In this document: positions 7,392-48,590 of the stretch, in pieces
Layout: the number at the start of each line of letters is the position of its first letter
Numbering within the stretch: position 1 is the first letter of the stretch
From: a bacterium
GTDB taxonomy: Bacteria > Actinomycetota > Acidimicrobiia > Spongiisociales > Spongiisociaceae
Assembly: GCA_028821265.1 (NCBI GenBank)
Contig: JAPPGU010000008.1
Span: 36,446-100,445 of the forward strand
DNA: 64,000 bases
Direction of reading: 5' to 3'
Notes under the pieces: model-generated
Databases searched by the model: none
What the model saw: only the letters and a program-made list of their open reading frames with translations
What the model was told of the DNA's origin: nothing
Made by a program: the position numbers and the translations under genes

Positions 7392-8426
7392 TCAGCCGAT
7401 CGGGGTGTCGAGACGGCCTTTCCTCCAGGCCATGATGTAGTTCATGCACATCTCGTCGCGGCCCAGCAGGGTGTCCTCGGCCAGCCTGTAGGCCGCGGAG
7501 TCGCGATCCACCGAGAAGACCGCGGCCAGCGGGTTCATCACCGGGTCGATGATGCCACTGTCCGCACCCGCCTCGACGGCCAGGTTGATGAAGGCGGCGT
7601 TCATCAGCTTGCGGGCGGGTATGCCGAACGAGACGTTGCTCATGCCGCCGGTGATGTGTATCTCCGGCCCGTAGCGCTCCCGGAGGGTACGAATCGCCTC
7701 GAGGGTGTGAAGACCGAAGCTGCCGTCCACCGAGATGGGGAAGACGAGCGGATCCACGAACAGGTCTCCGATACGAAGGCCCGCGCCGAGCGCCCTCTCC
7801 ACCATCCGGGAGGCGTTGTCGATGCGCTCACTTGCGCTGGACGGCATACCGTCGGCCCCGGCGGCGGTGACGATCGCCCTGGCGCCGTACTCCAACGCGA
7901 GCTCCACCGCCTCGGTCCGCTCCAGGGAGGCCGAGTTGAGGATCGGCGGGGTGTCACCGGCCCGGCGAGCGGCGGCCAGCCCGGCCTCGATGACGGTGAT
8001 GTCGGAGGAGTCCACGGAGATCGGGAGATCGGTCAGCGAGCCCACGTAAACGACCAGCCACTCCATGGCCGCCCGCTGCTCACCGGTCCGGAGCGAGATC
8101 TCGTCCACGTTGACGTCCAGGTAGTGGGCGCCGGTCCGCTCCTGGTCGGCCACCACACGCCGCAGGTACTCCAGGCCCAGGTCCGGGTCGCCCCCTCTCC
8201 CCATGGCGGCATCCACCGCCAGGGCGATGTGCTTGATCCGGCCCTCGTCGTAGGCCTTCGTGGCCCGCATCGCGGCCGAGATCGGGAGGAGCCCCGTCTC
8301 CCCGTCGAGGGTCTCGAAGGTGACGCCCTCCACGCCGTTCTCCACGGCGAAGCGCTTGCCCTTCCTGAGGACGATGCGGCTGGTGTGGACGTTCTCGCCG
8401 ATGACGACGAACCTCGGTTGCTTCAT
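7392..8426 (-). CDS. Pterin-binding methyltransferase (methyl-tetrahydrofolate:corrinoid methyltransferase, MT-II; AcsE/MtrH/DHPS-like)
   Basis: 344-aa TIM-barrel pterin-binding domain protein (…DVNVDEISLRTGEQRAAMEWLV…ITGGMSNVSFGIP…). Start ATG overlaps the stop of the upstream RACE gene (ATGA). Confidence 0.75.
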   Translation of the reverse strand: MKQPRFVVIGENVHTSRIVLRKGKRFAVENGVEGVTFETLDGETGLLPISAAMRATKAYDEGRIKHIALAVDAAMGRGGDPDLGLEYLRRVVADQERTGAHYLDVNVDEISLRTGEQRAAMEWLVVYVGSLTDLPISVDSSDITVIEAGLAAARRAGDTPPILNSASLERTEAVELALEYGARAIVTAAGADGMPSSASERIDNASRMVERALGAGLRIGDLFVDPLVFPISVDGSFGLHTLEAIRTLRERYGPEIHITGGMSNVSFGIPARKLMNAAFINLAVEAGADSGIIDPVMNPLAAVFSVDRDSAAYRLAEDTLLGRDEMCMNYIMAWRKGRLDTPIG

Positions 8427-10114
8427 CGCATCATCAACTCGGGCGCAGCCGGGCTCGCGCTCTCAGGGGCCGGCGGGAGGGTGTCGGGCATGGGCTTCAT
8501 CTGACATCCCTCCACGAAGATCTCGAAGAAGTCGGGCGTGGTCTCCAGCTCGAGATGGGTCACCCGCTTGGCCAGTTCCTCCGCCCGGGGGCGTCTGGTC
8601 CTGTCCAGAAGCAGGGCGCGCGCTCCCTCGATGGACGCGTTCCCCACCTTGACCACCCGCTCCTCGGGCACGGGCGCGATGAGGCCGATCTCGATGGCGT
8701 TACGGACGTCCAGGTAGTTGGCGAACCCTCCCGCCAGGTAGAGGCGGTCGATGCCGGATGGAGTGACCCCGGCGGTACGCATCACGATGAACTGGCCGCA
8801 GTAGTTGGCGGCCTTGGCCTGGGCGAGGTTGCCGATGTCACGCCTCGAGAAGGTGATGCCCCGATCGGGCACCAGGTCGATGGCGCCCAGCTTGCGATCG
8901 CTGGTGAACACGCCCAGCGGCGTCATGAGTTCGAGGCGGCGAAGCTCGGCCAGCAGGTCGGTGAGGCCGGAGCCGCAGATCCCGGACGCCGGAGCGTCGC
9001 CGATGGTCCTGTAGGAGCCGGCCGATCCGTCGCGGTCGAGCCGGATCGACTCGATGGCCCCGTCGTACGCCCTCATGCCGTAGGTGACCAGCCCCCCCTC
9101 GAAGGCCGGCCCCGCCGGGCAGGAGGCCGCGTAGAGACGGCCCTGATGGTGGAGCACCACCTCGGTGTTGGTGCCGATGTCCACCAGCATCTCGGTCTCC
9201 CCGGTCCGGCCCAGCCGGACGGTCTCGAGGCAGGCCACCGCATCGGCGCCCACATGGCTGGCGATCAGTGGCAGGCCGTAGACCCGGGCACGCCGGTTGG
9301 CGCGCAGGCCCAGGTCGCGGCTCAGAGCCAGCAGGGCGGTGTGGGGGCGCCGACCGTCCAGGTACTCGTGCTCGATGAGCGACTTGTAGGGCTTCTGGCC
9401 GATGCTCTGGACATCGATGCCGAACAGGATGTCGCGCATGGTGGAGTTGGCCGCCACCACGATCTCGTAGACATGGGGAGGGCGCTTGCCGAGGTGGCCG
9501 ACCATCTCGCGGACACCCTGGCCGATGGCCGCCACGGCGGCGTTTCGCAGCTCGCCGGCCACGCCCCGCCCGGCCTCGTAGGAGATGCGGTTCATGACGT
9601 CGCTGCCGCCGAACTGCTGCGGATTCTCGAAGCTGGTGACGGCGACGGTCTCGCCCGACTCGAGGTCGACCAGCTCCAGGACCACGGTCGTGGTTCCCAG
9701 GTCGACCGCCACACCGAGGATGGCCCCGCGGTAGGTGTCGATCACCTCGCCCGCATACCTGACCTGGTCGCCGGTCCTGATCACCATCGGGTCGAGCCGT
9801 TCGTCCGGATCCGGGCGCCGGCGGCCGGATTCCAGGATCCTCGGACGGCGGCGGAGCGGCTCGAAGCTGATCGGGCGCGCGTCGCTCACGATCCTGGCCT
9901 GGCAAGCCAGCCTGAAGCTGCCCCGGAGGAAGCTCTCCGGCTCGGTGCGCGGCGCCAGTGACTCCATGCCCCCGGTTATCTCCACCACGCACTCGTGGCA
10001 CCGGCCGGTACGCAGGCAGGAGGTGGGAACTTCGACCGACAACTCATCGGCGTAGTCGAAGATGGTCCGGCCGATCCGCAGCTTCCTGGTCGTGCCCAGG
10101 TGGGAAACGGTCAC
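8423..10114 (-). CDS. Corrinoid reductive activase (RACE/RamA-like ASKHA ATPase with N-terminal plant-type [2Fe-2S] ferredoxin domain)
   Basis: N-terminus VTVSHLGTTRKLRIGRTIFDYADELSVEVPTSCLRTGRCHECVV…LACQA carries a CX5CX2C…C 2Fe-2S motif. Followed by a large ASKHA/DUF4445-type ATPase body. GTG start at 10114; the ORF extension to 10558 looks like non-coding read-through. Confidence 0.75.
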   Translation of the reverse strand: MTVSHLGTTRKLRIGRTIFDYADELSVEVPTSCLRTGRCHECVVEITGGMESLAPRTEPESFLRGSFRLACQARIVSDARPISFEPLRRRPRILESGRRRPDPDERLDPMVIRTGDQVRYAGEVIDTYRGAILGVAVDLGTTTVVLELVDLESGETVAVTSFENPQQFGGSDVMNRISYEAGRGVAGELRNAAVAAIGQGVREMVGHLGKRPPHVYEIVVAANSTMRDILFGIDVQSIGQKPYKSLIEHEYLDGRRPHTALLALSRDLGLRANRRARVYGLPLIASHVGADAVACLETVRLGRTGETEMLVDIGTNTEVVLHHQGRLYAASCPAGPAFEGGLVTYGMRAYDGAIESIRLDRDGSAGSYRTIGDAPASGICGSGLTDLLAELRRLELMTPLGVFTSDRKLGAIDLVPDRGITFSRRDIGNLAQAKAANYCGQFIVMRTAGVTPSGIDRLYLAGGFANYLDVRNAIEIGLIAPVPEERVVKVGNASIEGARALLLDRTRRPRAEELAKRVTHLELETTPDFFEIFVEGCQMKPMPDTLPPAPESASPAAPELMMR

Positions 10115-10449
10115 GCCGTTGGCTCTTCTCCGGCTGCCTCCCGCCGGCGGGAGGAGGCCTCCTCCTTGATGGCGGATATCTTCGCGCTGGCCCTCTGCCG
10201 GGAGCGGGGATGGCTCTCCCATGCGGTGCGGTAGTCGAAGGTCCCGTCGTGGCCGCAGGTCAGCAGATCGGCTTCGGGGTCCGCCGCTATCTGGTTGCGA
10301 CACCTGAACAACGCCGTGCAAAGGTCGTGGCGGTCCCGGTAGGGGCAGCGGGTGCGGGATGACACCTCGGCATGGCCGACGATATCGGTGAAGAGGCGGC
10401 CGATCCGGTCGAGCCGTTCCTGGAAGGCCTGCTGGTCTTGGTCCGCCAT
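10111..10449 (-). CDS. Hypothetical small Cys-rich protein (112 aa) embedded in the corrinoid methyltransferase operon
   Basis: Fits exactly between the corrinoid protein stop (10470) and the RACE start (10114). High GC3. Five Cys (RCPYRDRHDLCTALFRCRNQ…LTCGHDG). No family recognised. Confidence 0.4.
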   Translation of the reverse strand: MADQDQQAFQERLDRIGRLFTDIVGHAEVSSRTRCPYRDRHDLCTALFRCRNQIAADPEADLLTCGHDGTFDYRTAWESHPRSRQRASAKISAIKEEASSRRREAAGEEPTA

Positions 10450-10469
10450 GGCGTGGCTCGGGTGAAGGT

Positions 10470-11222
10470 TCAGCGGCGGACTTCGAGCGCCAACTGCTTG
10501 GCCAGCGCCACGCAGGCCAAGGCGTCCTTGCCGTAGCCGTCCGACCCCACCTCTTCACCGAACTCCGGAGTCACCGGAGCTCCACCCACCATGAACCGCA
10601 CCTGCTCCCGGAGGCCGGCGTCCTTGAAGGCCTCCACCGTCCTGGCCATGTTAGGCATGGTGGTGGTGAGGAGGGCCGACATACCGATCAGGCGGGCCTC
10701 GCTGTCCTTGACAGCGGCGAGGAACTCGTCCGGCGAGGTGTTGACGCCGAGGTCGATCACCGTGAACCCGCCGCCGCGGAGCATCATGATGCAGAGGTTC
10801 TTGCCGATGTCGTGCAAGTCGCCCTGGACGGTCCCCATGATGACGGTACCGATCGGTTCCACTCCTGACGCGGCCAGGATCGGCTCGATATGGGCCATAC
10901 CGGCCTTCATGGCCCGGGCCGACACCAGTACCTCGGGGACGAAGACGTAGCCCTCCCGGAACTTGATGCCCACGATGCCCATGCCGGCGATCAGGCCGTC
11001 GTCCATGATCTCCAAGGCATGCACGCCGTCCGCGAGGGCCGCGACGGTGAGCCGGTCCACGGTCTCGTTGTCCCCCTCGATGAGGGCGGCGGCGATGTCC
11101 TGCATGGCCGGAGAGGCGCGGCTGAACAACTCCACGTTGCGTTCGATCTCTTCGGGCCGTTCGAGGAACTCCTCGATCTCGGCCCGTATCGTCTCGTTCG
11201 CTATACCGGATAGCTGAACCAT
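10470..11222 (-). CDS. Corrinoid (B12-binding) protein, MtmC/MtbC/OdmA-like
   Basis: N-terminal B12-binding-2 helical cap plus Rossmann B12-binding domain with DxHxxG motif (QGDLHDIGKN) and …GMSALLTTTMP…. Confidence 0.85.
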   Translation of the reverse strand: MVQLSGIANETIRAEIEEFLERPEEIERNVELFSRASPAMQDIAAALIEGDNETVDRLTVAALADGVHALEIMDDGLIAGMGIVGIKFREGYVFVPEVLVSARAMKAGMAHIEPILAASGVEPIGTVIMGTVQGDLHDIGKNLCIMMLRGGGFTVIDLGVNTSPDEFLAAVKDSEARLIGMSALLTTTMPNMARTVEAFKDAGLREQVRFMVGGAPVTPEFGEEVGSDGYGKDALACVALAKQLALEVRR

Positions 11223-11351
11223 TGGAATCGGTCAATCCTGCTTAATCGGTTGGAAGCGGTTTCTGGGAGACCCTTACGAACTCGGAAAGGCTACCCCGAT
11301 CAGGTCGGGCAGGCAAAGGTGGCGCGGACCGGCGATCTCCCGTCGGCCGGG

Positions 11352-12449
11352 CTAGCCGTCACCACCGGCCTCCGGCGGATCGTGGACCACGAACCGGCCA
11401 TCCGGGCGGTGCGCGTTGGAATAGTCCCGGGCGGAGTCGGCCAGCGCCGCCAGGACCTCCATCTTCGTCCCGAGCGGTACCGAGCCCTCGGGCGCCACTC
11501 CCTGCACCCCGGCGTTGAGCACGGTCATGCAGGCCTCGTAGCAGTCCTCGTAGTTGCCGCTGAACAGGATGGTCGGGTTGTTGATGTTCCCGAACAGCGA
11601 CATGCGGTCACCGGCGATCTCCTTCGCCTTGACCGGATCGACCTGGGACTCGAAGTGGAAGCAGTCCCAGCCCGCCTCGGCGAAGTAGTCGATGCGATCG
11701 GTGGTCTCGCCACAGCAGTGGAGGATGCTGGGACCGCCCACCTCGGCCTGGATCTGCTGATGCATCTCGAGGAGGAAGTCACGGTACATGTCGGGGCTGA
11801 CCAGTTCCCGGTTGGCGTGATCGCACCACATGATGGCGTCGGCCCCGGCTTCGAGCTGGGCATGGGCGGACATCATCGACGCCGGCAGCAGGACCTCCAG
11901 GTAACGGCGGATCTTGTCGGGGTCGAGGATGGTGTCCATCAGGAAGTTCTCGATACCGACCATATGGAAGCCCACCGACCAGGCTCCGTAGACCTTGCCG
12001 ACGATGCCCACGTCCGGGTAGCGCTTCCTGAGCAGGCGGATGGCGCCGAGGGCCGCCTTGAACGAGCGGCGCTCCAGGTAGTCGGAGGGGACCTTGAAGT
12101 CCTCGGGGTCGGTCAGGACGTGATCGTCGACCGCCGGCCAGTTGTCCTTGGTGCCCCACCAGGTCGAGGCGTCGAGGGCGTCGGCCTCGAGTTGGGAGTG
12201 GAAGACGGGCATCACCGTGTCGAGTCCCAGGTTCTCGTGGGCGGTGGCCGCCAGGCGGGCCATCTTCTCGGCGTCCAGATGGGCCTCCGGAAACTCGGCG
12301 TCGGCGATCTCCATAGCCTCGAGGGTGATCACCGAACTCAGGGTCATGGCCGGGACCTTGTCGACCCGGCCCCCGTACAGGGCCGACAGGAAACGCCGGC
12401 GGGGGGTCATCCATTCGCCGCTGAGTCGGGGGTACTGCTGTTCGGTCAT
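11352..12449 (-). CDS. Uroporphyrinogen-decarboxylase-family methyltransferase (substrate:corrinoid methyltransferase, MT-I; MtaA/CmuA/OdmB-like)
   Basis: 365-aa URO-D fold (…ILHCCGETTDRIDYFAEAGWDCFHFESQVD…) typical of corrinoid-dependent MT-I enzymes. First gene of the minus-strand operon. Confidence 0.75.
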   Translation of the reverse strand: MTEQQYPRLSGEWMTPRRRFLSALYGGRVDKVPAMTLSSVITLEAMEIADAEFPEAHLDAEKMARLAATAHENLGLDTVMPVFHSQLEADALDASTWWGTKDNWPAVDDHVLTDPEDFKVPSDYLERRSFKAALGAIRLLRKRYPDVGIVGKVYGAWSVGFHMVGIENFLMDTILDPDKIRRYLEVLLPASMMSAHAQLEAGADAIMWCDHANRELVSPDMYRDFLLEMHQQIQAEVGGPSILHCCGETTDRIDYFAEAGWDCFHFESQVDPVKAKEIAGDRMSLFGNINNPTILFSGNYEDCYEACMTVLNAGVQGVAPEGSVPLGTKMEVLAALADSARDYSNAHRPDGRFVVHDPPEAGGDG

Positions 12450-12647
12450 GCTTGCCTCTTTGCCTTGCTCTGGTGGAGTCCTGCCCGGTAAGTCGGATGC
12501 GTCGAAGATAGTAGTTGCCTCCTGCGTAGCCAGGCGCCACGAGCGAGGGCTGGGGCGGTGACGGGACCGGACCGTTCTCAGCGGTGGCTTGCCCGTGTCC
12601 GGCTAGGGACAGCGCGGGGATAGACTCGGCGACCAGGGAGGTTTGAC

Positions 12648-19701: not shown

Positions 19702-21801
19702 ATGCCGCCAGCAAGCGGAAGGAACAGTTCGGTGTTGCAGATCCTGGATCCGGCGGGGAAGCTGGTCGGCGAGCCGCCCGATCTGGACGGCAAGGACCTC
19801 TTGGAGATGTACCGGTTCATGGCGCTGGGACGGCGCTTCGACCGGCGGGCCATGAGGTTGCAGCGCCAGGGCCGTCTCGGCACCTTCCCGCCGGGAGAGG
19901 GACAGGAGGCTGCCCAGGTGGGTTCGGCCTACGCGCTCGAACCTGACGACTGGGTCTACCCCAGCTACCGGGAACACGCCACCCAACTGGTCAGAGGGAT
20001 GCCGTGGTCGGTCATGCTGTCGTACTACCGGGGCCTTCCCAACCGTGACTGGGATGTGCACCGGTACCGCATGAACATCCACACGATCCCGATCGCCACC
20101 CAACTGCCCCACGCTGTCGGGCATGCCCACGCCGCCCGCCTGGCCGGGGAGAACCTGATCACGATGGTCTACTTCGGCGACGGGGCCACCTCCGAGAGCG
20201 ACTTCCACTCCGCGATGAACTTCGCAGGGGTCTGGAAGGCGCCGACCGTGTTCCTGTGCTCCAACAACGGCTGGGCGATCTCGATGCCGACCCGGCGCCA
20301 GACCGCCGCTACCGATCTGGCCGACAAGGCGATCGGTTACGGAATGCCCGGCGTCAAGGTCGACGGGATGGACGTGCTGGCCGTCTACTCGGCCACCAAG
20401 GAGGCCGTGGACCGGGCCCGCCGCGGGGAGGGACCCACCCTCATCGAGGCCATCACGTACCGGTTCGGCCCTCATGCCACCGCCGACGACCCGAGCCTGT
20501 ACCGGAGCGAGAGCGAGGTGGAGGCCTGGCGGGTCCGTGACCCGCTCGACCGCATGCGCCGCTACCTCGACAGCCTGGACCTGTGGTCGGACGATATCGA
20601 CGAGCAGGTGACGGACGAGGCGAGCGAGATGGACCTGGCCCTGGCGGAGATAGAAGGGCGGGAGCCGCCACCCCGGGAGGAAGCGGTGCGGCACGTCTAC
20701 GCCAAAGTGCCCGAGGCGCTGTCCCACCAGTACGAGACGGCTCTGAGACGTGAGGACTCCGGCCCTTCCCGGCTGGAACCAGACGAGCGGTGGCGGATAG
20801 GGCACGATCCCGTGCTCGAGGGCGCCACCGCCCACTGGAACATGGCGGAGGCGATCAACGCCGCTATGGCGGAGGTCATGGACCGCCATCCGGAGGCCAT
20901 CATCATGGGCGAGGACGTGGGCCGGACCGGAGGCGTGTTCCGCATCACCGCCGGCCTCCTGGACCGATTCGGCGCCGGCCGGGTCATCGACTCCCCGTTG
21001 TGCGAGACCGGCATCGCCGGGACAGCGGTGGGAATGGCCATCGGCGGGGCGCGTCCTCTGGTCGAGATCCAGTTCGACGGGTTTGTCTACCCGGCCTTCG
21101 ACCAGATCGTCAGCCACATGGCCCGGTTCCGTTTCCGCACCAGGAGCAACGTTTCGCTCCCCATCGTGGTGCGCTGGCCCAACGGCGGCGGTATCGCTCC
21201 CCACGAGTTCCACGGCGACAGCCCGGAGGCCTACTTCGTCCACACTCCGGGCCTGACGGTGGTGGTCCCGTCCACGGCCGTGGACGCCAAGGGCCTGCTG
21301 GCCGCGGCGGCGGAGAGTCCGGATCCGGTGCTCTTCCTTGAGCCCAAGGTGCTGTACCGGGCCGGACGCGAGGACGTCCCCACCGGCTACTACACCCTCC
21401 CGATCGGGCGGGCGCGGATCCGCAGAGCCGGCGACGACGTGACGGTGGTCACCTACGGGGGAATGGTCCGCGTGGCGATGTCCGCCGCCGGCCAGTTGGA
21501 ACGCGAGGGGGTGTCGTGCGAGGTGATCGACCTGCGCACCCTGAAGCCCTGGGACCGCGACACCGTGCTCGACTCGGTGGCCAGGACCGGGCGCCTCGTA
21601 CTGGTTCAGGAGCCTCCCCGAACCGCTGGAATGGCCGCCGAGGTGGCGGCCACGGTGGCGGAGGAGGCTCTGTACGATCTCGAGGCCCCGATAGCGCGGG
21701 TGGCCGGCTTCGATGCCCCCTGGCCCCAGTTCGGGGTGGAGGCGCACGCCATCATCACCCCGCGACGGGTGGTCTCGGCCGTGCGGGAGACCCTCGGCTA
21801 G
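19702..21801 (+). CDS. Fused 2-oxoacid dehydrogenase E1 component, alpha and beta subunits in one 699-aa polypeptide (TPP-dependent)
   Basis: N-half is E1-alpha (TPP motif …VYFGDGATSESDFHSAMNFAGVW…); C-half is E1-beta/transketolase-like (…GEDVGRTGGVFRIT…IDSPLCETGIAG…). No E2/E3 genes adjacent. Confidence 0.8.
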   Translation: MPPASGRNSSVLQILDPAGKLVGEPPDLDGKDLLEMYRFMALGRRFDRRAMRLQRQGRLGTFPPGEGQEAAQVGSAYALEPDDWVYPSYREHATQLVRGMPWSVMLSYYRGLPNRDWDVHRYRMNIHTIPIATQLPHAVGHAHAARLAGENLITMVYFGDGATSESDFHSAMNFAGVWKAPTVFLCSNNGWAISMPTRRQTAATDLADKAIGYGMPGVKVDGMDVLAVYSATKEAVDRARRGEGPTLIEAITYRFGPHATADDPSLYRSESEVEAWRVRDPLDRMRRYLDSLDLWSDDIDEQVTDEASEMDLALAEIEGREPPPREEAVRHVYAKVPEALSHQYETALRREDSGPSRLEPDERWRIGHDPVLEGATAHWNMAEAINAAMAEVMDRHPEAIIMGEDVGRTGGVFRITAGLLDRFGAGRVIDSPLCETGIAGTAVGMAIGGARPLVEIQFDGFVYPAFDQIVSHMARFRFRTRSNVSLPIVVRWPNGGGIAPHEFHGDSPEAYFVHTPGLTVVVPSTAVDAKGLLAAAAESPDPVLFLEPKVLYRAGREDVPTGYYTLPIGRARIRRAGDDVTVVTYGGMVRVAMSAAGQLEREGVSCEVIDLRTLKPWDRDTVLDSVARTGRLVLVQEPPRTAGMAAEVAATVAEEALYDLEAPIARVAGFDAPWPQFGVEAHAIITPRRVVSAVRETLG

Positions 21802-32722: not shown

Positions 32723-33328
32723 TTAGAGGGCGTCCGACAGGGCGCGCCAGAGGTCGGTCACGGCGGACCCCAAGCCTCCCAGCGCCCAGCGCAGGACCAG
32801 GGCCACGACGGCGATCCCGGCCGCGGCGAAGATCATCCGGAGCCGGTAGGTCATCGTCTCCTCGCTGTCCTCCAGGTAGGAGGGATTGGCGACCGGCGCC
32901 CGCGCCATGGCGCGCCGTCGCCCGAGGGATTGCCTGGCTCTCGAGATCAGTTTCGACCCGGGCGCCTCCGAGAACTCAAGAGGGGCGCTCTCCGGGTGTG
33001 GGAGATCCGGCGGCTCCTCCAGCTCGACGAACTCGATGTCGTACAGGGTGTCCTCGTCCAGATCGGTGTCCGGCTCGGGCGGCGGCAGCAGCATCCTGTG
33101 CTCGTCGACCCGCCGCAAGGCTTCCTCCAGGAGAGGCATCGGCAGCCTCAGCGCGGCGGACACGTCCACCAACTCGTCGGCGTCAGGTACGGCGGAGCCC
33201 TGTTCCCAGCCGACCACCACTTCGATCGGCCGCCCGGTTCGGGTGGCGATGTCCACCACGGAGACGTCCATCTCTTCACGGCGCTTCGCGAACAGGCGGG
33301 CGAACGCCAGCCCTTCGTCCGGCGACAT
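32723..33328 (-). CDS. HTH (XRE-like) domain membrane protein, RodZ-like architecture
   Basis: Start MSPDEGLAFARLFAKRREEMDVSVVDIATRTGRPIEVVVGWE (HTH), acidic linker, C-terminal TM helix. ATG overlaps the stop of the upstream gene by 1 nt. Confidence 0.5.
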   Translation of the reverse strand: MSPDEGLAFARLFAKRREEMDVSVVDIATRTGRPIEVVVGWEQGSAVPDADELVDVSAALRLPMPLLEEALRRVDEHRMLLPPPEPDTDLDEDTLYDIEFVELEEPPDLPHPESAPLEFSEAPGSKLISRARQSLGRRRAMARAPVANPSYLEDSEETMTYRLRMIFAAAGIAVVALVLRWALGGLGSAVTDLWRALSDAL

Positions 33329-33732
33329 CAGTGGGTCAGTATCTCGGGGAGGCTGTCGGGTTCCGGCCCGGCGGTGACCCGCAGCAGACCGAGGTCCTTG
33401 ACGTTCCAGCACAGGGTCATGCCACCCGGCACCAGGAGCCGCAGGATCGACTCACCGTCGGCGCGGCCGGCGTGAACCTCACCGAGCGCCAGCACCTCGG
33501 TCAGGGGGATCGAGGCGGAATAGGCGCCGTCGGCGCTGAGGGCCGTGACGTGGGTGGCGCCCGTCCGGGGCCGGGCCGCCTCGATCAGCGGGCGCATGGC
33601 CACCACCACGCCCGCCGCGCCCTCCTCCGGAGTTCCCATGTCGTGGAGGGTGTCCAGGTCGTAGCCCCGGGGACGGTCGACCAAGCCGGTCACCCGCAGC
33701 AGCGGTAGCTCGTTGGATGTTCCACCAGACAC
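33328..33732 (-). CDS. Small sulfite-oxidase-fold (Oxidored_molyb-like) domain protein, no obvious Mo-ligating Cys
   Basis: …LLRVTGLVDRPRGYDLDTL…AYSASIPLTEVL…ILRLLVPGGMTLCWNVKDLGLLRV… resembles the Moco-domain core of the YedY/sulfite-oxidase family, but only 134 aa. Confidence 0.4.
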   Translation of the reverse strand: MSGGTSNELPLLRVTGLVDRPRGYDLDTLHDMGTPEEGAAGVVVAMRPLIEAARPRTGATHVTALSADGAYSASIPLTEVLALGEVHAGRADGESILRLLVPGGMTLCWNVKDLGLLRVTAGPEPDSLPEILTH

Positions 33733-33787: not shown

Positions 33788-33882
33788 TGGCGGAGGCGGA
33801 CGGGAATCGAACCCGCCGGGGCACTCTCGTACCCCCACTGGTTTTGAAGACCAGGGAGCCCACCAGGCGCTCGTTCGCCTCC
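33788..33882 (-). tRNA. selC: tRNA-Sec (selenocysteine tRNA), anticodon UCA
   Basis: Minus-strand sequence GGAGGCGAACGAGCGCCTGGTGGGCTCCCTGGTCTTCAAAACCAGTGGGGGTACGAGAGTGCCCCGGCGGGTTCGATTCCCGTCCGCCTCCGCCA. 95 nt; anticodon loop CU-UCA-AA; long variable arm (GGGGG…CCCC). T-arm GCGGG-TTCGATT-CCCGT, then an 8-nt acceptor 3' strand, G73 and CCA, giving the 8/5 acceptor/T architecture diagnostic of bacterial tRNA-Sec. -10-like TATCCT 7 nt upstream. Confidence 0.8.
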
Positions 33883-34329: not shown

Positions 34330-35637
34330 ATGACATCCGAAGGCCGCCGGGGACGACGCCTCACCGCCACCGTCACCGACCTGGATGTCGCCCGGCAGAA
34401 GGCCTACCTCATCAGCGTCGACTTCGAAGGGGCCGGCATTGGCGACGTCGATCGGTCACTCGAGGAGCTGGTCCTCCTGACGGATACGGCCGGGTCGACC
34501 CCGGTGGCGACCGCACGGGTCCGGCGCCGCTCACCGCATGCCGCCACGCTGATCGGTCCCGGCCAGGCCGAAGACCTGGCCCGGGACGCCCAGGCCCTGG
34601 ACGTGGACGTGGTGGTGTTCGACAACGACCTGGCACCGGGCCAGCAGCGCAACCTCCAGCAGCTGTTCGAGTGCGACGTGGTCGATCGGGTGGCCGTGAT
34701 CCTGGACATCTTCGCCCAGCACGCCACCAGCCGGGAGGGCATGCTCCAGGTGGAATCGGCGCTCCTCCGCTATCACCTGCCCCGGCTGCGCGGGAAGGGC
34801 ACCGAGCTAAGCCGCCTCGGCGGAGGCATCGGCACGAGAGGGCCCGGCGAGACCAAGCTGGAGACCGACCGCCGCCGGATCCGGCAGCGCATCACCCACG
34901 TGGAGAAGCGCCTCAAGGAGGTCCAGAAGGTCCGGGAGGCCCAGCGCAAGACGCGCAGCGGCTCGGCCATCCCCCTGGTGTCGCTGGTCGGATACACCAA
35001 CGCCGGCAAGTCCACGCTGCTCAACGCCCTCACCGGCGCCGGGGTGCTCACCCAGGACCGCCTGTTCTCCACCCTCGACTCGACCACCCGCCGGCTCGAA
35101 CTCTCCAACGGGCGCCAGGTGCTGCTGTCCGACACGGTGGGGTTCGTCCGCAGGCTGCCCCATCAACTGGTCGAGGCCTTCCGCTCCACCCTCGAGGAAA
35201 CGGTCCAGGCCGACCTGCTGCTCCACGTGGTGGACGTCTCCGAACCCGGCGCGCCCGACCAGATCTCGGCGGTGAGGGGGGTCCTCGACTCGATCGGCGC
35301 CGGCCACATCCCCGAACTCCTGGTGCTCAACAAGGCCGACTCCGCCGACCTGACCAGCCTCTCCCCCGTCGAGCAGCTGTATCCGGACGCGGTGCTCGTC
35401 TCGGCTGCGGAGCCCACCGGCCTCGAGGAGCTGGCGGACCGCATCGCCGGCGTGCTGGCCCGAGGCTTCCTGGAGATCGACCTGGTGATCCCCTATACCG
35501 ACGGAGCCGTCCTGGGCGAACTCCGCCGCGAGGCGGAAGTCCTGACCGAGGACCACGGGGCGGAGGGCACCCTGGTCAGCGTCCGGCTGCCTCCCGATCG
35601 GGCCGGACGCTACCGGCGCTTCGCCGCGGTCGGCTGA
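34330..35637 (+). CDS. hflX: GTPase HflX
   Basis: HflX N-terminal domain plus G domain (GYTNAGKSTLLNALTG, DTVGF, NKAD). Confidence 0.85.
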   Translation: MTSEGRRGRRLTATVTDLDVARQKAYLISVDFEGAGIGDVDRSLEELVLLTDTAGSTPVATARVRRRSPHAATLIGPGQAEDLARDAQALDVDVVVFDNDLAPGQQRNLQQLFECDVVDRVAVILDIFAQHATSREGMLQVESALLRYHLPRLRGKGTELSRLGGGIGTRGPGETKLETDRRRIRQRITHVEKRLKEVQKVREAQRKTRSGSAIPLVSLVGYTNAGKSTLLNALTGAGVLTQDRLFSTLDSTTRRLELSNGRQVLLSDTVGFVRRLPHQLVEAFRSTLEETVQADLLLHVVDVSEPGAPDQISAVRGVLDSIGAGHIPELLVLNKADSADLTSLSPVEQLYPDAVLVSAAEPTGLEELADRIAGVLARGFLEIDLVIPYTDGAVLGELRREAEVLTEDHGAEGTLVSVRLPPDRAGRYRRFAAVG

Positions 35638-45228: not shown

Positions 45229-46281
45229 TCAAACGGCGAAGATTCGTTTCGGGTTCTCGATGAGCATGTCGTCGATCTGGTCTCGGGTGACACCGGCATC
45301 GAGGAGCTGGGGAACGATCTCGTTGAGGATGTAGGCGTAGCCCTTGCCGCCGTAGGCGACCAGGTGCGTCTTCAGGCACCGGTCCTGGGCGAGCATGATC
45401 TGCCGGCTGTAGCCGTCAGCGCAGAGGCGGGCCAGCGTTTCGACGCGCTCCCGGTCGGAGATCCAGTGGTCGCCGCCGAAGAGGAGGTGGGTGTCGGTCC
45501 ACGATGTGTCTCCGAAGCAGTCGTAGTCGATGGAGACGCCCCGGTCCATCACCGACTCGTGATACTCGTAGTCGGGGCAGCTCCCGTCCATATGGCTCAT
45601 GTAGACCTTGTCGAGGTCGGCGCCCTCCTCCTCCAAGATGTCGATGTAACGGTGAGCCTCCTTCATGAACACCATCGGATGCACGGTGAGCGGAACCCCG
45701 GTGGCCGCCTGGGCCCTACCCCCGGCCCGGAGGACCTTCTCCTCCTGGGGGTGCAGGGGCTCGCACATGCCCAACTCGCCGATGACGCCCGCCCGAATGT
45801 CGGTCCCCTGGATACCCACCTCGATGTCGCTGATCAACATCTCGGCCAACTCTCCCACCGATGCCGTGGCGTGGCCGGAAGGATGGGACGGAGCGATGTA
45901 CCAACCGGTGGAGGCGACGATGTTGACTCCGGTGGCTTCGCTGGCGACCACGAGGTCATCGGGGTGCCAGCCGGGGATCCGGCCGCTGACATCGACGAAG
46001 CTCTGCCCGCCGGCGTCGGCGTACAGCTGCAGCTCCCGGATGGCGACGTCCAGCTCCGTCATCCGCAGGTTGTCCTTCGATACGTACGGGTGGGCGGCGA
46101 CGTCGCCGGCGTTCTCCGGGGTCACCGGGCCCGCTGCCAGAGCCTGGATCTCGGGCGGATCGCTTGTCGAAGGCTCGTGCCAGAACAGATGCGAGGTGTC
46201 GAGCAGCAGGTGCTCGTGGCTCATAGTGACGCCGAGGTCATCCGGTGAGATCTCGCCGAGGACGGTACGGACGTTGGCCAT
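45229..46281 (-). CDS. Phosphotriesterase-family (PTE/PHP, amidohydrolase superfamily) protein
   Basis: …GVTMSHEHLLLD… (HxH metal site) …TGVPLTVHP… full-length 350 aa. Confidence 0.8.
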   Translation of the reverse strand: MANVRTVLGEISPDDLGVTMSHEHLLLDTSHLFWHEPSTSDPPEIQALAAGPVTPENAGDVAAHPYVSKDNLRMTELDVAIRELQLYADAGGQSFVDVSGRIPGWHPDDLVVASEATGVNIVASTGWYIAPSHPSGHATASVGELAEMLISDIEVGIQGTDIRAGVIGELGMCEPLHPQEEKVLRAGGRAQAATGVPLTVHPMVFMKEAHRYIDILEEEGADLDKVYMSHMDGSCPDYEYHESVMDRGVSIDYDCFGDTSWTDTHLLFGGDHWISDRERVETLARLCADGYSRQIMLAQDRCLKTHLVAYGGKGYAYILNEIVPQLLDAGVTRDQIDDMLIENPKRIFAV

Positions 46282-46298
46282 GAGCTACCGGCTTCCCC

Positions 46299-47201
46299 TC
46301 AGTTCTCCTGATCCTTATCGGAGCCGTCGAGTTGGAGGAGGCGGGCAGCGTTGCCGCCGAGGTAGGCGGCGATGTCGTCGTCGGTCAGGTCGGGGAGGCC
46401 GGGGGCGATGTTGAGCTCCTTGGCGAGGCGGGGGAAGGACTTGATGTAGGGGACGTCCTCGCGGCAGTCGTAGTTGTCGGTGCCCCACAGACACTTGTCG
46501 AGGACCTTGAAGTGCTTGGCGTACTTCAGGAACCGCACGTTGGCCTCCAACGGTTGGAGGAACCCCCACCAGCCGGTCCCGGCGTACATGTTGCGGTTCT
46601 TCAGCATCATCATCACGACCTCTTCGTAGTAGTTGAATCCGGCATGGACCACGATCAGCTTCAAGTCGGGGAACCGAACCGAAACCCTGTCCAGATACAG
46701 GGGATGCTGCTGGCTCAACAAGTCGTATCCCGCCCACCCGGTGTGGACCTGGATGATCATCCCCAACTCCTCGGCCTTCTCGTAGATAGGCATTATCCGC
46801 TCGTCGTCGAGGTTCATGTCGTAGTCGGGCGCCGGGGTGATCTTCATGCCGATGAGACCCATATCCACGATCTCCTCCATCTCCCGCAGCGCGGGGAGGC
46901 CGCCGAGGAGGTCGACGCTGCCCATGCCGATCAGCCGATCGGGGAACTTGGCCACCTCGCCCGCCACGAACTCGGACGGCACGTGGGCGTTCAGATGGGG
47001 CATTTTGATCGCGTGACTGATGGCCATGTCGACGCCTGCTTCGTCCATACGGGCGACCATCTGTTCGCCGCTCATCCCCTGGTTCAGGCCCGTCTTCTCA
47101 CCGATCTCGGTCCAGCCGGCATCGATCATCGCGTCGTCCATCATGGTCAGGTCGCCCCAGCTGTTCGGCTCCGACAGCCAGACGTGGGTGTCGATGATCA
47201 T
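46299..47201 (-). CDS. Amidohydrolase-2 family (TIM-barrel metal-dependent hydrolase, ACMSD-like)
   Basis: MIIDTHVWLSEP… N-terminal metal-binding His/Asp pattern of PF04909-type hydrolases. Confidence 0.65.
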   Translation of the reverse strand: MIIDTHVWLSEPNSWGDLTMMDDAMIDAGWTEIGEKTGLNQGMSGEQMVARMDEAGVDMAISHAIKMPHLNAHVPSEFVAGEVAKFPDRLIGMGSVDLLGGLPALREMEEIVDMGLIGMKITPAPDYDMNLDDERIMPIYEKAEELGMIIQVHTGWAGYDLLSQQHPLYLDRVSVRFPDLKLIVVHAGFNYYEEVVMMMLKNRNMYAGTGWWGFLQPLEANVRFLKYAKHFKVLDKCLWGTDNYDCREDVPYIKSFPRLAKELNIAPGLPDLTDDDIAAYLGGNAARLLQLDGSDKDQEN

Positions 47202-47371
47202 GGATACTCCCGTTCAGGCGTTTGCGCGCGCTCCTTGAGCCACTCCGGCGCCGCGCATGGACTTGAGCCCCACGATACAATCACGACCCCTGCCATCAAC
47301 GATGCACCGAGGGCGTTTCTTGCATGGAAAGGAAGCGATACGGGGCGATTGGCACTGACGAGGGTGGGCGC

Positions 47372-48556
47372 ATGAAGATCACCGGCATCCGTGTGACGCA
47401 TGTGAACGTCCCCTTTGATGCACCTTTCTGGTGGACCGCCGGTCTCTATCCGGGTGCGTCGAAATCGATCGTCGAGGTGGAAACCGACGAGGGCATAGTC
47501 GGCCTTGGGGAGGCGCCGTGGTGGCATTTCGGCGAGGTGATCGAGCGAGAGATCGCGCCCGCTCTGATCGGTGCCGACCCGTTCGATCTCGCCGACTGCG
47601 AGGCGCGGTGCGTGCCTGCCTATCAGATCACCGCGAACACCGGCGAGACTGCCTCGATGGTCGCTTTCGGCGCCGTCGAATTGGCACTCTGGGACATCCA
47701 GGGCAAAGCCCTCGACATGCCCCTCTACAGGCTGCTGGGCGGAGCCGTGCGCAAGGAGATCCCTTTCACCGAATACTTCTCGTTCCGGCCTGAGCACAAG
47801 GGCGCGGGCGGCGAGATGTCGGCCGAGGCCATCGTCGAGTACTGCCTGAGGATGTGCGAGGAACACGGCTCGACCTACTTCGAGGGCAAGCTGATTCTGG
47901 GCGACCCCGAGCTGGAGATACGGACTGTCGCCATGTTGCGCGAGGCCCTCGGCGCGGACGCCATGATCCGCCTCGACTCGAACATGCAATGGTCGCTGAC
48001 CACCGCCCGCTGGGTGTTGCGCGAGGTCGAGGCGTTCAACATCCGCAACTACGAGGACCCGGTCGCAACGTTTGAGGAGATGGCAGAGTTGCGCCGCCAT
48101 ACGATGATCCCCTTCTCCACCCATGTGCCGGACCTGCGCCGCGCCGTCGCGCTGGGGGCGCCCGATGCCTTTGTCTGCAACTTCGCGGCACTCGGCGGCA
48201 TCAGGGCGACGCTCAGATTCGTGGCCGCTTGCGAGGCGATGGGCAAGGACTTCTGGTGCTACTCGAATGACCTCGGCATCATGACCGCGGCCTATCTACA
48301 TCTGACGGCTGCGACGCAGTGGATCACCGAGCCGTCGCAGTCGTTGTTCCGCTGGCAGATCGGGGACGTGGTCGAAGGCGGACCCTTCCGCCAGACCGAC
48401 AACACCATCCGCGTTCCCGAAGGACCCGGCCTCGGCGTCGAGCTCGACCCCGAGTCGATGGCGCGCTGGCACCAGCATTTCGTGGATAACGGGCCGATGA
48501 GCCATTTCCATCATCCGGAGAGCCCGGACCATTACACGCGTTTGCCGCTCAACTGA
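47372..48556 (+). CDS. Mandelate racemase/muconate lactonizing enzyme family (enolase superfamily)
   Basis: MKITGIRVTHVNVPF…IVEVETDEGIVGLGEAP… capping domain plus TIM barrel with metal ligands. Confidence 0.8.
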   Translation: MKITGIRVTHVNVPFDAPFWWTAGLYPGASKSIVEVETDEGIVGLGEAPWWHFGEVIEREIAPALIGADPFDLADCEARCVPAYQITANTGETASMVAFGAVELALWDIQGKALDMPLYRLLGGAVRKEIPFTEYFSFRPEHKGAGGEMSAEAIVEYCLRMCEEHGSTYFEGKLILGDPELEIRTVAMLREALGADAMIRLDSNMQWSLTTARWVLREVEAFNIRNYEDPVATFEEMAELRRHTMIPFSTHVPDLRRAVALGAPDAFVCNFAALGGIRATLRFVAACEAMGKDFWCYSNDLGIMTAAYLHLTAATQWITEPSQSLFRWQIGDVVEGGPFRQTDNTIRVPEGPGLGVELDPESMARWHQHFVDNGPMSHFHHPESPDHYTRLPLN

Positions 48557-48590
48557 TGCGCTCCATCGTGAAGCCGGGACTGGAGGGATC

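Follow-up and report, generated by a model that had tools for sequence, protein, structure and literature searches.

A putative corrinoid-dependent methyl-transfer operon with an apparently swapped methyltransferase module in a sponge-associated Acidimicrobiia bacterium

The window, a 64,000-nucleotide stretch of contig JAPPGU010000008.1, comes from a sponge-associated Acidimicrobiia bacterium (Ca. Spongiisociaceae). Positions 7392-12449 carry, all on the minus strand and in this order, genes for a methyltransferase (MT-I), a corrinoid protein (CP), a 112-aa protein with four invariant cysteines (Cys4 protein), a reductive activator (RACE), and a second methyltransferase (MT-II). An earlier note had proposed a five-gene operon here, and all of its open reading frames were recovered with the domain content claimed. 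A separate gene caller applied to the source contig (ENA ERZ23495471, scaffold_136, 180 kb) returned the identical five products of 365, 250, 112, 563, and 344 aa. Of the junctions described previously, the 20-nt gap between CP and the 112-aa ORF and the ATGA overlap of RACE and MT-II were confirmed, whereas the gap between MT-I and CP was 129 nt rather than 130 bp, and the 4-nt overlap of the 112-aa ORF with RACE reads GTGA rather than ATGA because the RACE start codon is GTG. The same five-gene order was common to at least 36 species-level Acidimicrobiia genomes (about 40 species-level genomes in all) and to 80 metagenome loci, and dN/dS values of 0.02 to 0.21 across all five genes indicated purifying selection. 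Thus, the arrangement is far beyond chance.

A Shine-Dalgarno-like AAGAGG lies upstream of the MT-I ATG. The divergent intergenic region between MT-I and a rhodanese gene (12450-12647, no strand assigned) is presumed from its position only to hold the operon promoter; it matched no Rfam family, even at E <= 1, and the relevant strand showed neither a sigma-70-like site nor a terminator. The neighbors reported earlier were found as NhaA, the rhodanese, and two alpha/beta-hydrolases, and the DMGDH-like protein at 48591-51038 has the expected DAO, FAO_M, GCV_T, and GCV_T_C domains. The window's "F420 enzyme" gave only a luciferase-like monooxygenase family match (PF00296). An aerobic context for the operon is plausible.

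MT-I (11352-12449, 365 aa) was identified as a URO-D-fold corrinoid methyltransferase of the MtaA/CmuA type (Pfam URO-D, 5e-57). Profile search rejected the suggestion that it might be a genuine hemE product, with 40 bits against a cutoff of 303, while MtaA/CmuA-type models gave 226 to 236 bits (PRK06252, 236; MtaA_Meth, 227; TIGR01463, 226 against a cutoff of 235). The sole strong relative of solved structure was MtaA (4ay7; 33% identity, E = 1e-47), and searches with MT-I matched no O-demethylase-type model or structure. On sequence, MT-I is assigned to the MtaA/CmuA (SCMT-like) branch and not clearly to the OdmB/VdmB O-demethylases, to which SCMT-like proteins are about 17% identical (PMC10418091). 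Its zinc motif is altered, reading HCCG...PEG in place of the usual H-x-C...PEC. The predicted site comprises H244-C245-C246 and E267, with G322 replacing the second Cys ligand of MtaA; H244, C246, and E267 were strictly conserved in the motif analysis. The new adjacent cysteine, together with three HCCG+PEC intermediates, suggests that the His-Cys-Cys site has moved and was not lost.

CP (10470-11222, 250 aa) combines a cap domain with a Rossmann-type B12 domain (B12-binding, PF02310, 1.7e-26; B12-binding_2, PF02607, 7.9e-20) and contains the DxHxxG motif as GDLHDIGKN. Its top NCBIfam match was an MtgC-like model. RACE (8423-10114, 563 aa) is predicted to be a RACE/RACo-type ATP-dependent reductive activator with an N-terminal plant-type [2Fe-2S] ferredoxin domain (Fer2, PF00111, 6e-7), a RACo middle domain (Raco_middle, PF17651, 5.9e-39), and an ASKHA ATPase (RACo_C_ter, PF14574, 2.1e-68); it scored 291 bits with an AcsV-like NCBIfam model, under the cutoff of 800. 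MT-II (7392-8426, 344 aa) is a predicted pterin-binding methyl-corrinoid:tetrahydrofolate (THF) methyltransferase (Pterin_bind, PF00809, 6.7e-21) that is extended at its N terminus by about 85 aa. It matched corrinoid:THF methyltransferase models (PRK07535, 194 bits, 2.7e-57) and neither of the alternatives raised earlier was supported: no dihydropteroate synthase (folP) model was matched, and the MetH equivalog, with a cutoff of 1011 bits, gave 109. The ACS-MeTr model score was far under its cutoff. The top PDB matches were 4o0q (5.9e-32), which we take to be the D. hafniense O-demethylase MT-II, and then MeTr/AcsE structures. MT-I, CP, MT-II, and RACE are all present, in agreement with the earlier claim of a self-contained corrinoid methyl-transfer operon with its own ATP-dependent activase.

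The Cys4 protein (10111-10449, 112 aa) had no match in Pfam or NCBIfam and was present in all related loci. Its motif, RCPYRxRxDxCTAxFRCRNQ...C.HDGxFDYRxAWE, includes the invariant residues C35, C44, C50, and C65, and the family numbered 188 representative clusters among 1.84e9 proteins, with a dN/dS of about 0.2. In metagenome loci, the gene directly upstream was CP in 52 of 53 cases and the gene directly downstream was RACE in 48 of 51; in several lineages an in-frame fusion joins the protein to the N-terminal end of RACE (P0233 and others). A fold search with an AF2 model (pLDDT 80.8) found no matching fold. Identity with DUF1638, which occupies the position after CP in the Chloroflexia locus L038, was rejected (hhalign probability, 0.3%). 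The ORF is a real protein of a previously unannotated family and a conserved core component rather than an incidental reading frame. The near-obligate adjacency and the several independent in-frame fusions tie it to RACE, and we propose that it assists or partners the reductive activase.

The window's operon is one branch of a large, uncharacterized operon family of marine and soil bacteria, with a core of URO-D, CP, Cys4, and RACE genes that was widespread among marine and soil MAGs. The terminal methyltransferase module in this family binds either a pterin (THF) or homocysteine. The gene after RACE was Pterin_bind (PTER) in 39 loci and a homocysteine S-methyltransferase (HCY, PF02574) alone in four (L049, L055, L129, and L132); both modules occurred in L059 and L119, the latter in the order RACE-MTHFR-PTER-HCY. 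Regardless of the acceptor partner, the URO-D proteins were 73 to 85% identical. Since URO-D was constant while the THF and homocysteine acceptors were exchanged, URO-D would most simply be the donor-side MT-I. The presence of MTHFR beside the operon in L038, L064, L070, L115, and L119 suggests a link to the folate pool. Of 28 long loci, 6 had a GntR/FCD regulator as a neighbor, and Met, SAM, and B12 riboswitches were not detected, giving the family a catabolic flavor.

Within this family, the window's MT-I stood apart. It was only 39 to 44% identical to the canonical MT-I clade, while identities in the same comparison were 69 to 73% for CP (with the distant operons L051 and L054), 56 to 66% for RACE, and 53% for MT-II. 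It formed a separate neighbor-joining clade with 100% bootstrap support, whose sister clade was of acetogen-type Firmicutes origin. The low identity of MT-I against the 53 to 73% of its partners indicates that the usual MT-I was replaced in the sponge-symbiont branch by the HCCG/PEG clade, as a swapped substrate module, which would imply a different methyl donor. MT-I was also the most constrained operon gene within the sponge lineage (dN/dS, 0.02 to 0.14). Divergence from the canonical clade combined with this constraint fits its presumed role as the substrate-specific module.

Collectively, these data suggest that the operon, as one family branch with a swapped MT-I, probably specifies a complete and soluble relay for corrinoid (B12)-dependent methyl transfer from a donor to THF. 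MT-I would bind a small methylated compound, probably with the help of its zinc site, and the supernucleophilic Co(I) of CP would pick up the methyl group to give CH3-Co(III). MT-II would then hand the methyl from the corrinoid to N5 of THF, from which it could enter the C1 pool and be oxidized or used in biosynthesis, possibly including that of methionine. Accidentally formed Co(II) would be re-reduced by RACE with ATP and its [2Fe-2S] domain, and the Cys4 protein may take part in this step, either as a partner that binds metal or as an additional redox domain. We infer the direction, donor to THF, from module swapping only. On thermodynamic grounds, the donor should be activated; examples are aryl and alkyl methyl ethers, methyl halides, sulfonium compounds like DMSP, and quaternary amines, and a simple thioether is unlikely. 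As the earlier note had maintained, the substrate cannot be predicted from sequence. No conserved flanking gene or consistent substrate clue was found among the related loci compared, which we count against the relay. Also counting against it, the nearest characterized relatives of MT-I, MtaA and MtbA, usually work in the opposite direction, from CH3-Co to a thiol, and in soil Chloroflexota many MT-I proteins of the window's clade lack a neighboring corrinoid protein. Further points against it are that HCY-only operons could draw a pterin module from elsewhere and that the PF02574 protein could be corrinoid independent and MmuM-like. In support of the relay, the MtgBCDE system with RamA and DUF1638 provides a precedent in aerobic marine bacteria (PMC12478193, PMC5764234).

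The relay might instead run in reverse, as a split, MetH-like methyl-THF:thiol methyltransferase, a possible but unlikely reading. MT-II would load CH3 from CH3-THF onto CP, MT-I would methylate a zinc-activated thiol or chalcogenide, and RACE and the Cys4 protein would stand in for the SAM-dependent reactivation domain of MetH; acceptors could be homocysteine (a new kind of methionine synthase), sulfide/methanethiol, selenide, or a CoM-like thiol. MtaA is itself a methyl-Co:thiol methyltransferase, MT-I keeps the H-x-C and Glu zinc ligands, and the PTER-type operon holds all of the parts needed. Energetics also favor this direction, as transfer from CH3-THF to a thiol is strongly exergonic and transfer from a thioether to THF costs about +30 kJ/mol (cf. 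Mtr). Across phyla, members of the canonical URO-D clade keep about 80% identity, as a housekeeping gene might, MTHFR adjoins several loci (as MTHFR-PTER-HCY in L119), and a rhodanese gene adjoins the operon in the window's closest relatives. Further support comes from aerobic Phaeobacter and Ruegeria, in which a split MetH accompanied by a RamA-like protein is proven (PMC5764234, PMC12478193), and from the methylation of selenide by ClMlp2 from methylcobalamin (PMC10418091). However, the four URO-D operons with PF02574 and no pterin module would have no methyl donor under this scheme; if URO-D bound homocysteine, they would also carry two homocysteine methylases, and the two operon types share closely similar URO-Ds. 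The window's MT-I has, moreover, lost the second Cys ligand typical of S-methyltransferases, and the GntR/FCD regulators and absence of riboswitches fit catabolism better.

Two narrower readings specify the donor. Improbably, the operon could be a true methoxy-aromatic (aryl methyl ether) O-demethylase acting on, for example, brominated O-methyl-tyrosine alkaloids of sponges or lignin-derived methoxyaromatics. The architecture matches the Odm/Vdm/Mtv/Mto systems, MT-II has 4o0q as its best solved relative, and acetogen-type Firmicutes supply the sister clade. UroD-superfamily O-methyltransferases swap Cys ligands for carboxylates or nonligands (PMC10418091), a rule that loss of one Cys ligand in MT-I fits, although the HCCG cysteine and the intermediates suggest a moved site. 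The genes beside related loci include a glyoxalase-fold dioxygenase, an FAA hydrolase, esterases, and a GntR/FCD regulator, but these neighbors follow no consistent pattern and the esterases are not orthologs; the MtaA/CmuA placement of MT-I and its lack of O-demethylase-type matches also argue against this substrate class. Still less probable is Cmu-like methyl halide use, in which MT-I would dehalogenate CH3Cl, CH3Br, or CH3I onto CP and MT-II would make CH3-THF. The MtaA/CmuA family model scored MT-I just short of its trusted cutoff, NCBI names its close homologues as that family, and methyl halides abound in the marine and soil settings where this clade occurs. No conserved transporter or downstream catabolic gene was found, which would suit a substrate that diffuses and releases an inorganic leaving group, and zinc is dispensable in the haloalkane MT-I CdmB (PMC13222342). 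Against this, strict conservation of H244, C246, and E267 argues for a functional metal site, CmuA is a methyltransferase-CP fusion, and no cmuB- or cmuC-type gene was seen.

Among known systems, anaerobic O-demethylases resemble the relay favored here in their parts. A. dehalogenans OdmABCD/Vdm, D. hafniense Dhaf_4610-4612, Moorella MtvABC, and Methermicoccus MtoABCD share with it a UroD-superfamily MT-I, CP, MT-II, and a RACE-type activator, and in both the methyl would end on a folate-type carrier. The earlier label "O-demethylase-like" holds for architecture but not for MT-I lineage, since MT-I belongs with MtaA/CmuA rather than OdmB/VdmB/MtvB/MtoB (PMC10418091, PMC13222342). The window's operon also has the extra conserved Cys4 protein, and operons of its type are found in sponge, marine, or soil bacteria, not in strict anaerobes. 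MT-I resembles methanogen MtaA/MtbA/MtsA in its fold and in its His-x-Cys and Glu zinc ligands but has Gly322 for the second Cys and an extra Cys245 beside His244; its partner is a THF methyltransferase in place of a CoM-linked pathway, without MtaB-, MttB-, or MtsB-type partners.

Type 1 mlp clusters (Kountz and Balskus, PMC10418091) likewise group an SCMT-like URO-D, CP, and bacterial RACE, are widespread and uncharacterized, and sometimes adjoin a sulfurtransferase. Each of these clusters holds two or three Mlps and no H4folate methyltransferase, and all are confined to obligate anaerobes (PMC10418091), whereas the window encodes a single URO-D protein, accompanied by a pterin MT-II and the Cys4 protein. 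Like the operon family here, the Roseobacter split MetH/glycine-betaine system is a modular B12 system of aerobic marine bacteria; it combines a CP, a pterin-binding methyltransferase, a RamA/RACE activase, an optional homocysteine module, and a small activase-tracking accessory protein (DUF1638, as against Cys4); its donor methyltransferase is of the MttB family rather than URO-D, its genes are dispersed rather than in one tight operon, and the window's CP falls under the MtgC cutoff (205 versus 370 bits). The CmuA/CmuB chloromethane system shares an MtaA/CmuA-family methyltransferase domain, corrinoid carrier, THF acceptor, and aerobic hosts. CmuA is a fused methyltransferase-corrinoid protein, while the window encodes separate MT-I and CP together with RACE and the Cys4 protein.

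The minus-strand operon was found exactly where the earlier note had placed it (7392-12449), as five open reading frames encoding, in order, the URO-D-fold methyltransferase MT-I (11352-12449; 365 aa), the corrinoid protein CP (10470-11222; 250 aa, a B12-binding cap and domain with GDLHDIG as its DxHxxG motif), a protein of 112 aa that matches no known family (ORF112, 10111-10449; hereafter the Cys4 protein), the reductive activase RACE (8423-10114; 563 aa, Fer2, Raco_middle and RACo_C_ter) and the pterin-binding methyltransferase MT-II (7392-8426; 344 aa, Pterin_bind). The same five products were predicted by an independent gene caller (source contig ENA ERZ23495471, scaffold_136, 180 kb). 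The 20-nt spacer and the last ATGA overlap were as originally described, but the first spacer measures 129 rather than 130 nt, and the first overlap is GTGA rather than ATGA because the start codon of RACE is GTG. A longer RACE reading frame (8423-10558, minus strand), which adds 148 codons 5' of this GTG and overlaps ORF112 in another frame, received no support from homologues or from the independent gene call. The rest of the 64 kb is ordinary chromosome, encoding a housekeeping sigma-70 factor, 6-phosphogluconate dehydrogenase, aminopeptidase N, thiolase and transporters, with a uniform GC content of 65-70% across the window. Riboswitch searches (cobalamin, SAM or other) of the entire window, of the region upstream of the operon with a threshold of E <= 1, and of 11 related loci were all negative, and a promoter and terminator scan was uninformative.

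At 83-99% identity, homologues of the window MT-I were present in 36 species-level genomes; these are exclusively MAGs labelled Acidimicrobiia or Candidatus Spongiisocius/Spongiisociaceae, and projects on sponges and corals contributed many of them. The same search recovered a small number of homologues from soil Chloroflexia at 59-64% identity. Gene order was identical in every Acidimicrobiia locus whose sequence extended far enough. Since flanking genes were common to the closest relatives only, the conserved unit is the five genes themselves. Comparison with three relatives yielded dN/dS values of 0.02-0.14 for MT-I, 0.07-0.12 for CP, 0.17-0.21 for ORF112, 0.12-0.15 for RACE and 0.09-0.12 for MT-II. 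This range, 0.02-0.21, indicates that all five genes, the small ORF included, are functional. The reading of the locus as a self-contained corrinoid methyl-transfer operon stands, with the refinements described here, and the operon very probably encodes a functional relay with its own activase.

Domain and motif matches placed three of the products in their expected classes. CP matched PF02607 and PF02310 and carries GDLHDIG in its translation, as found in methyltransferase-cognate corrinoid proteins; DxHxxG marks His-on, base-off B12 binding. The score of CP against TIGR02370 was 175 bits (cutoff, 215) and the MtgC models also fell below their cutoffs, so that CP is a family member of no named subtype. 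RACE contains the N-terminal [2Fe-2S] ferredoxin, RACo middle and C-terminal ASKHA ATPase domains of the RACE/RACo class, all above Pfam gathering cutoffs, and the pattern C-x5-C-x2-C...C is readable in its translation; scores against the specific AcsV and RamA models were below cutoff. MT-II matched PF00809 and, at 2.7e-57, the corrinoid:THF methyltransferase model PRK07535. Two other identities raised for MT-II, dihydropteroate synthase (DHPS) and MetH, were excluded by model scores and PDB matches: none of the folP models matched, and the MetH score was 109 bits against a cutoff of 1011. The best PDB match was 4o0q, followed by AcsE/MeTr structures. Although 4o0q is labelled 'DHPS' in the PDB, we take it to be the O-demethylase MT-II of D. 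hafniense.

The possibility that MT-I is a genuine uroporphyrinogen decarboxylase was likewise eliminated. The HemE model TIGR01464 scored 40 bits against a cutoff of 303 and covered residues 113-299 only, and UroD structures matched at E = 1e-6 or worse, compared with 1e-47 for MtaA. Full-length matches just under cutoff were obtained with TIGR01463 (MtaA/CmuA family; 225.9 bits, cutoff 235.4) and PRK06252 (methylcobamide:CoM methyltransferase type; 235.8 bits, cutoff 244), and homologues 62-66% identical to MT-I carry the NCBI and JGI name 'MtaA/CmuA family methyltransferase'. In a structure search to E <= 10, the sole strong solved relative was MtaA of Methanosarcina mazei (33% identity, E = 1e-47). 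The soluble CoM methyltransferases (SCMTs; MtaA, MtbA and MtsA) are themselves only ~30% identical to one another, and members of the SCMT-like branch share ~17% identity with OdmB and VdmB, which are O-demethylases (Kountz & Balskus, PMC10418091); OdmB, VdmB, MtvB, MtoB and CdmB occupy a separate part of the UroD superfamily (CdmB paper, PMC13222342). From these model scores, the structure match and the published identities, the label 'O-demethylase-like' given in the earlier note holds for the architecture of the operon, but the lineage of its MT-I appears to be MtaA/CmuA-like.

The predicted metal site of MT-I departs from that of MtaA (4AY7), whose zinc ligands we take to be His240, Cys242 and Cys319, with an exchangeable Glu263. 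His244, Cys246 and Glu267 of MT-I align with these ligands, Gly322 occupies the position of Cys319, and a further cysteine, Cys245, lies beside His244 (HCCG ... APEGS). MT-I therefore lacks the His-Cys-Cys zinc triad of the S-type SCMTs. Among the 120 best homologues, HCCG with PEG was present in 81 clusters from Acidimicrobiia, soil Chloroflexota and Limnocylindrales, which form the window clade, the canonical HICG with PEC in 23 clusters from Moorella, Thermoanaerobacterium, Negativicutes and other Chloroflexi, and an HCCG/PEC intermediate in 3 clusters. Judged from the alignment, a cysteine ligand may have been relocated, with Cys245 taking over from the lost one. It is also possible, by analogy with UroD-superfamily O-methyltransferases, which depart from the soft His-Cys-Cys site (PMC10418091), that the change is a move away from this site.

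Comparison of the window with canonical operons (L051 and L054) revealed 69-73% identity for CP, 56-66% for RACE, 53% for MT-II and 46-60% for the Cys4 protein, and 39-44% for MT-I. In a neighbor-joining tree, the window MT-I clade (100% bootstrap) was sister (82%) to a Firmicutes clade of Moorella, Thermoanaerobacterium and Negativicutes, and canonical URO-Ds formed a separate clade (100%). Within the sponge lineage, MT-I was the most constrained gene of the operon by dN/dS. Collectively, these comparisons suggest that the MT-I of the window has been swapped in; a gene that is exchanged between lineages yet held tight within one would show the pattern expected of a substrate-specifying module. 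The HCCG/PEG operon type was also present in non-sponge marine metagenomes (L060, L061, L078 and L089).

Several relatives of this MT-I occur in other settings. The HCCG/PEG MT-I genes of soil Chloroflexota (L043, L044, L045-L048 and L038) are often solitary, without an adjacent corrinoid protein, and repeatedly adjoin genes for CoA-transferase III, enolase-superfamily and E1 2-oxoacid dehydrogenase proteins. At L038, MT-I, CP and DUF1638 genes are accompanied on the opposite strand by MT-II, MTHFR (with PF12225) and RACE. In Moorella (Neomoorella) thermoacetica (L042, 10001-13550), the gene for a homologue with 55% identity belongs to a set in which an MFS transporter gene separates two URO-D genes, and no corrinoid protein is encoded beside it.

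The Cys4 protein was present in all related loci. Four of its cysteines (Cys35, Cys44, Cys50 and Cys65) are invariant, within the motif RCPYRxRxDxCTAxFRCRNQ...C.HDGxFDYRxAWE, and searches of Pfam and NCBIfam with ORF112 returned zero matches. A profile of the protein matched 188 clusters among 1.84 billion representative proteins, among them several long proteins whose Cys4 domain is joined in frame to the N terminus of a RACE protein. The representative P0233 is a complete fusion (Cys4, Fer2, Raco_middle and ASKHA) with a corrinoid protein gene directly 5' of it on its contig, and the same junction was found in P0216, P0211, P0226, P0302 and P0294. In the 80 metagenome loci obtained with the profile, a CP gene lay immediately upstream of Cys4 in 52 of 53 informative cases and RACE immediately downstream in 48 of 51. 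On the basis of this conservation, the RACE fusions and the adjacency to CP and RACE, we propose that the activase has in the Cys4 protein either a partner that binds metal or an additional redox domain.

One further protein, P0231 (242 aa), matches the Cys4 profile over its first 70 residues and is a B12-binding corrinoid protein over the remainder; it could be a Cys4-CP fusion or an artefact of assembly or frameshift. Relationships of ORF112 to DUF1638 and to MetV/MTHFR_C (PF12225, the Cys-rich C-terminal domain of MTHFR) were each rejected at an hhalign probability of 0.3%. In aerobic Roseobacters, whose methionine synthase is split, DUF1638 is the accessory protein that accompanies the RamA-like activase (PMC5764234, PMC12478193), and the gene after CP in the Chloroflexia locus L038, where other loci have Cys4, encodes DUF1638.

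The 80 metagenome loci came from the marine water column, deep sea, soils, a lake and sponges, and share the core URO-D–CP–Cys4–RACE, which was also seen in MAGs of Acidimicrobiia, Gemmatimonadota, Acidobacteriota, Latescibacterota and Chloroflexota. Most of these operons (37 loci) have canonical URO-Ds with the HICG/PEC motif; the clade of these URO-Ds comprises at least 2965 clusters, and they are ~80% identical across MAGs labelled Gemmatimonadota, Acidobacteria/Bryobacteraceae, Latescibacterota and Handelsmanbacteria. The gene after RACE encodes a pterin-binding methyltransferase in 39 loci, and a homocysteine S-methyltransferase (PF02574) alone in L129 (7980-8954), L132 (4230-5222), L049 (10217-11230) and L055 (4645-5268). 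Both are present in L059 and L119. The order in L119 (167-6313) is CP–Cys4–RACE–MTHFR–pterin-binding methyltransferase–PF02574, a gene content reminiscent of a split methionine synthase that has an MTHFR to itself; an MTHFR gene also adjoins the operon in L038, L064, L070 and L115. No gene for PF02574, the homocysteine-binding module of a split cobalamin-dependent methionine synthase, was found in the window operon or the sponge loci. In 17 of 30 informative loci, a conserved ORF of ~170-217 aa without a Pfam match but with a duplicated FACG..H motif lies directly 5' of the canonical URO-D (L049, 5553-6185; L051, 5441-6094; L055, 242-745; L054, 13088-13738, minus strand); this ORF is absent from the window and the sponge loci.

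These variants bear on the direction of methyl flow. Canonical URO-Ds are 73-85% identical whether their partner is the pterin-binding or the homocysteine enzyme. Since THF and homocysteine modules exchange around a constant URO-D, the simplest explanation is that URO-D acts on the donor side and the product of the last gene on the acceptor side, an arrangement of donor side and exchangeable acceptor in which Roseobacter MtgB/C/D/E operates (PMC12478193). In addition, GntR/FCD regulators adjoin 6 of 28 long loci, and these neighbours, together with the lack of Met, SAM or B12 riboswitches, suggest an inducible catabolic or assimilatory function. We therefore favour, with reasonable rather than strong confidence, flow from a methyl donor through MT-I, CP and MT-II to THF. 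The main alternative is the opposite flow, which, in the form of a MetH-like system that would pass the methyl group of CH3-THF through CP to a thiol by the MtaA-like enzyme, fits the usual chemistry of MtaA, the thermodynamics and the strong conservation across phyla; however, it leaves the operons with only a homocysteine enzyme unexplained, and we consider it unlikely. Thermodynamics also constrains the favoured donor-to-THF direction. Moving a methyl group from a thioether onto folate or pterin costs ~30 kJ/mol (the Mtr reaction), and simple S-methyl thioethers would thus be poor donors for an operon ending in THF, despite the MtsA-like ancestry of its MT-I. For this reason, demethylation of MeSH, DMS or MMPA to THF was demoted as the main model. 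Plausible donors are aryl or alkyl methyl ethers, methyl halides, sulfonium compounds (DMSP, S-methylmethionine) and quaternary amines.

The view that the substrate is not predictable from sequence was upheld. An assignment from conserved neighbours was attempted and rejected: recurrent neighbours (an M24/creatinase-fold gene, amidohydrolases, PTE, SDR, GntR, fused E1, esterases and FAA hydrolase) differ from lineage to lineage and do not agree with one another. A rhodanese gene adjoins the operon in the group of the window, and dioxygenase-fold, FAA-hydrolase and esterase genes do so elsewhere; two operon-side esterases of different lineages are not orthologous. An M24/creatinase-prolidase-fold gene divergently adjoins MT-I in 16 sponge-Acidimicrobiia loci (e.g., L016, 8601-9767, minus strand) and is absent from the window. 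The M24 fold includes creatinase, ectoine hydrolase and the DMSP lyase DddP. The window also encodes, at ~8 kb or less from the operon, a fused E1 alpha-beta 2-oxoacid dehydrogenase (19702-21801, plus strand), and similar genes occur near related operons (L079, 64-1707; L038, 19425-20462; L043/L044). Because these E1 genes are only 32% identical, their recurrence is possibly a coincidence.

Two other features of the window were noted. A tRNA-Sec gene (selC, 33792-33882, minus strand; 77 bits, gathering cutoff 47) lies ~21 kb from the operon, next to an HflX-type GTPase gene (34330-35637) and a weak, possibly split pair of molybdopterin-oxidoreductase ORFs (33328-33732 and 32723-33412). Selenium use has been tied to SCMT-like clusters (PMC10418091); no direct link between selC and the operon was evident in the window. 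At 45229-51038, genes for phosphotriesterase-family, Amidohydro_2, enolase-superfamily (MR_MLE) and 815-aa DMGDH/sarcosine-dehydrogenase-type proteins are clustered, the last with DAO, FAO_M, GCV_T and GCV_T_C domains. From its domain content, this cluster looks like one for THF-dependent catabolism of N-methyl amino acids or betaine, separate from the B12 operon.

B12 methyl-transfer relays have been regarded as a hallmark of anaerobes such as acetogens, methanogens and dehalogenators, and their part in driving major osmolyte turnover in aerobic marine bacteria was shown only recently. An aerobic lifestyle is plausible for the host, as for sponge Acidimicrobiia in general. A broader reading, which we advance tentatively and regard as doubtful as a whole, is that the URO-D–CP–Cys4–RACE core would be a very widespread, undescribed B12 methyltransferase system of oxygen-exposed bacteria, in which Cys4, as a new obligatory metal or redox partner of the activase and sometimes a domain of it, would allow Co(II) to be returned to Co(I) in settings that are not strictly anoxic. 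Symbionts of sponges and corals would have plugged in another MT-I with a relocated zinc ligand to harvest host-derived methyl groups, which could be those of DMSP-type sulfonium compounds or methoxylated bromotyrosine alkaloids, and sister operons would pass the same methyl group directly to homocysteine to form methionine.

The operon family appears large, and it is tightly conserved and wholly uncharacterised. Its methyl donor, once identified, would define an added route by which C1 compounds, sulfur or halogens are cycled in the sea and in soils, and one of nutrient exchange between sponges and symbionts. For a missing factor of corrinoid reactivation, the Cys4 protein offers a concrete and testable candidate, and the exchange of MT-I with the HCCG/PEG zinc-site change may serve as a natural experiment on the evolution of substrate specificity in the UroD superfamily. 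In the literature library searched, no publication dealt with the operon, with the Cys4 protein or with B12 methyltransferases of sponge Acidimicrobiia, and none mentioned Spongiisocius. The set of MT-I, CP, MT-II and RACE is an already known kind of system. New here are the fifth component, which has no annotation and in some lineages is fused to RACE, the apparently changed metal site of the MT-I clade, and the place of the operon in a very large, uncharacterised family whose hosts are not strict anaerobes. The type 1 mlp cluster requires at least Mlp2 and Mlp3 (two or more URO-D paralogues), CP and RACE, with no H4folate methyltransferase; because the window operon has only one URO-D gene and does encode a pterin methyltransferase, it falls outside this definition.
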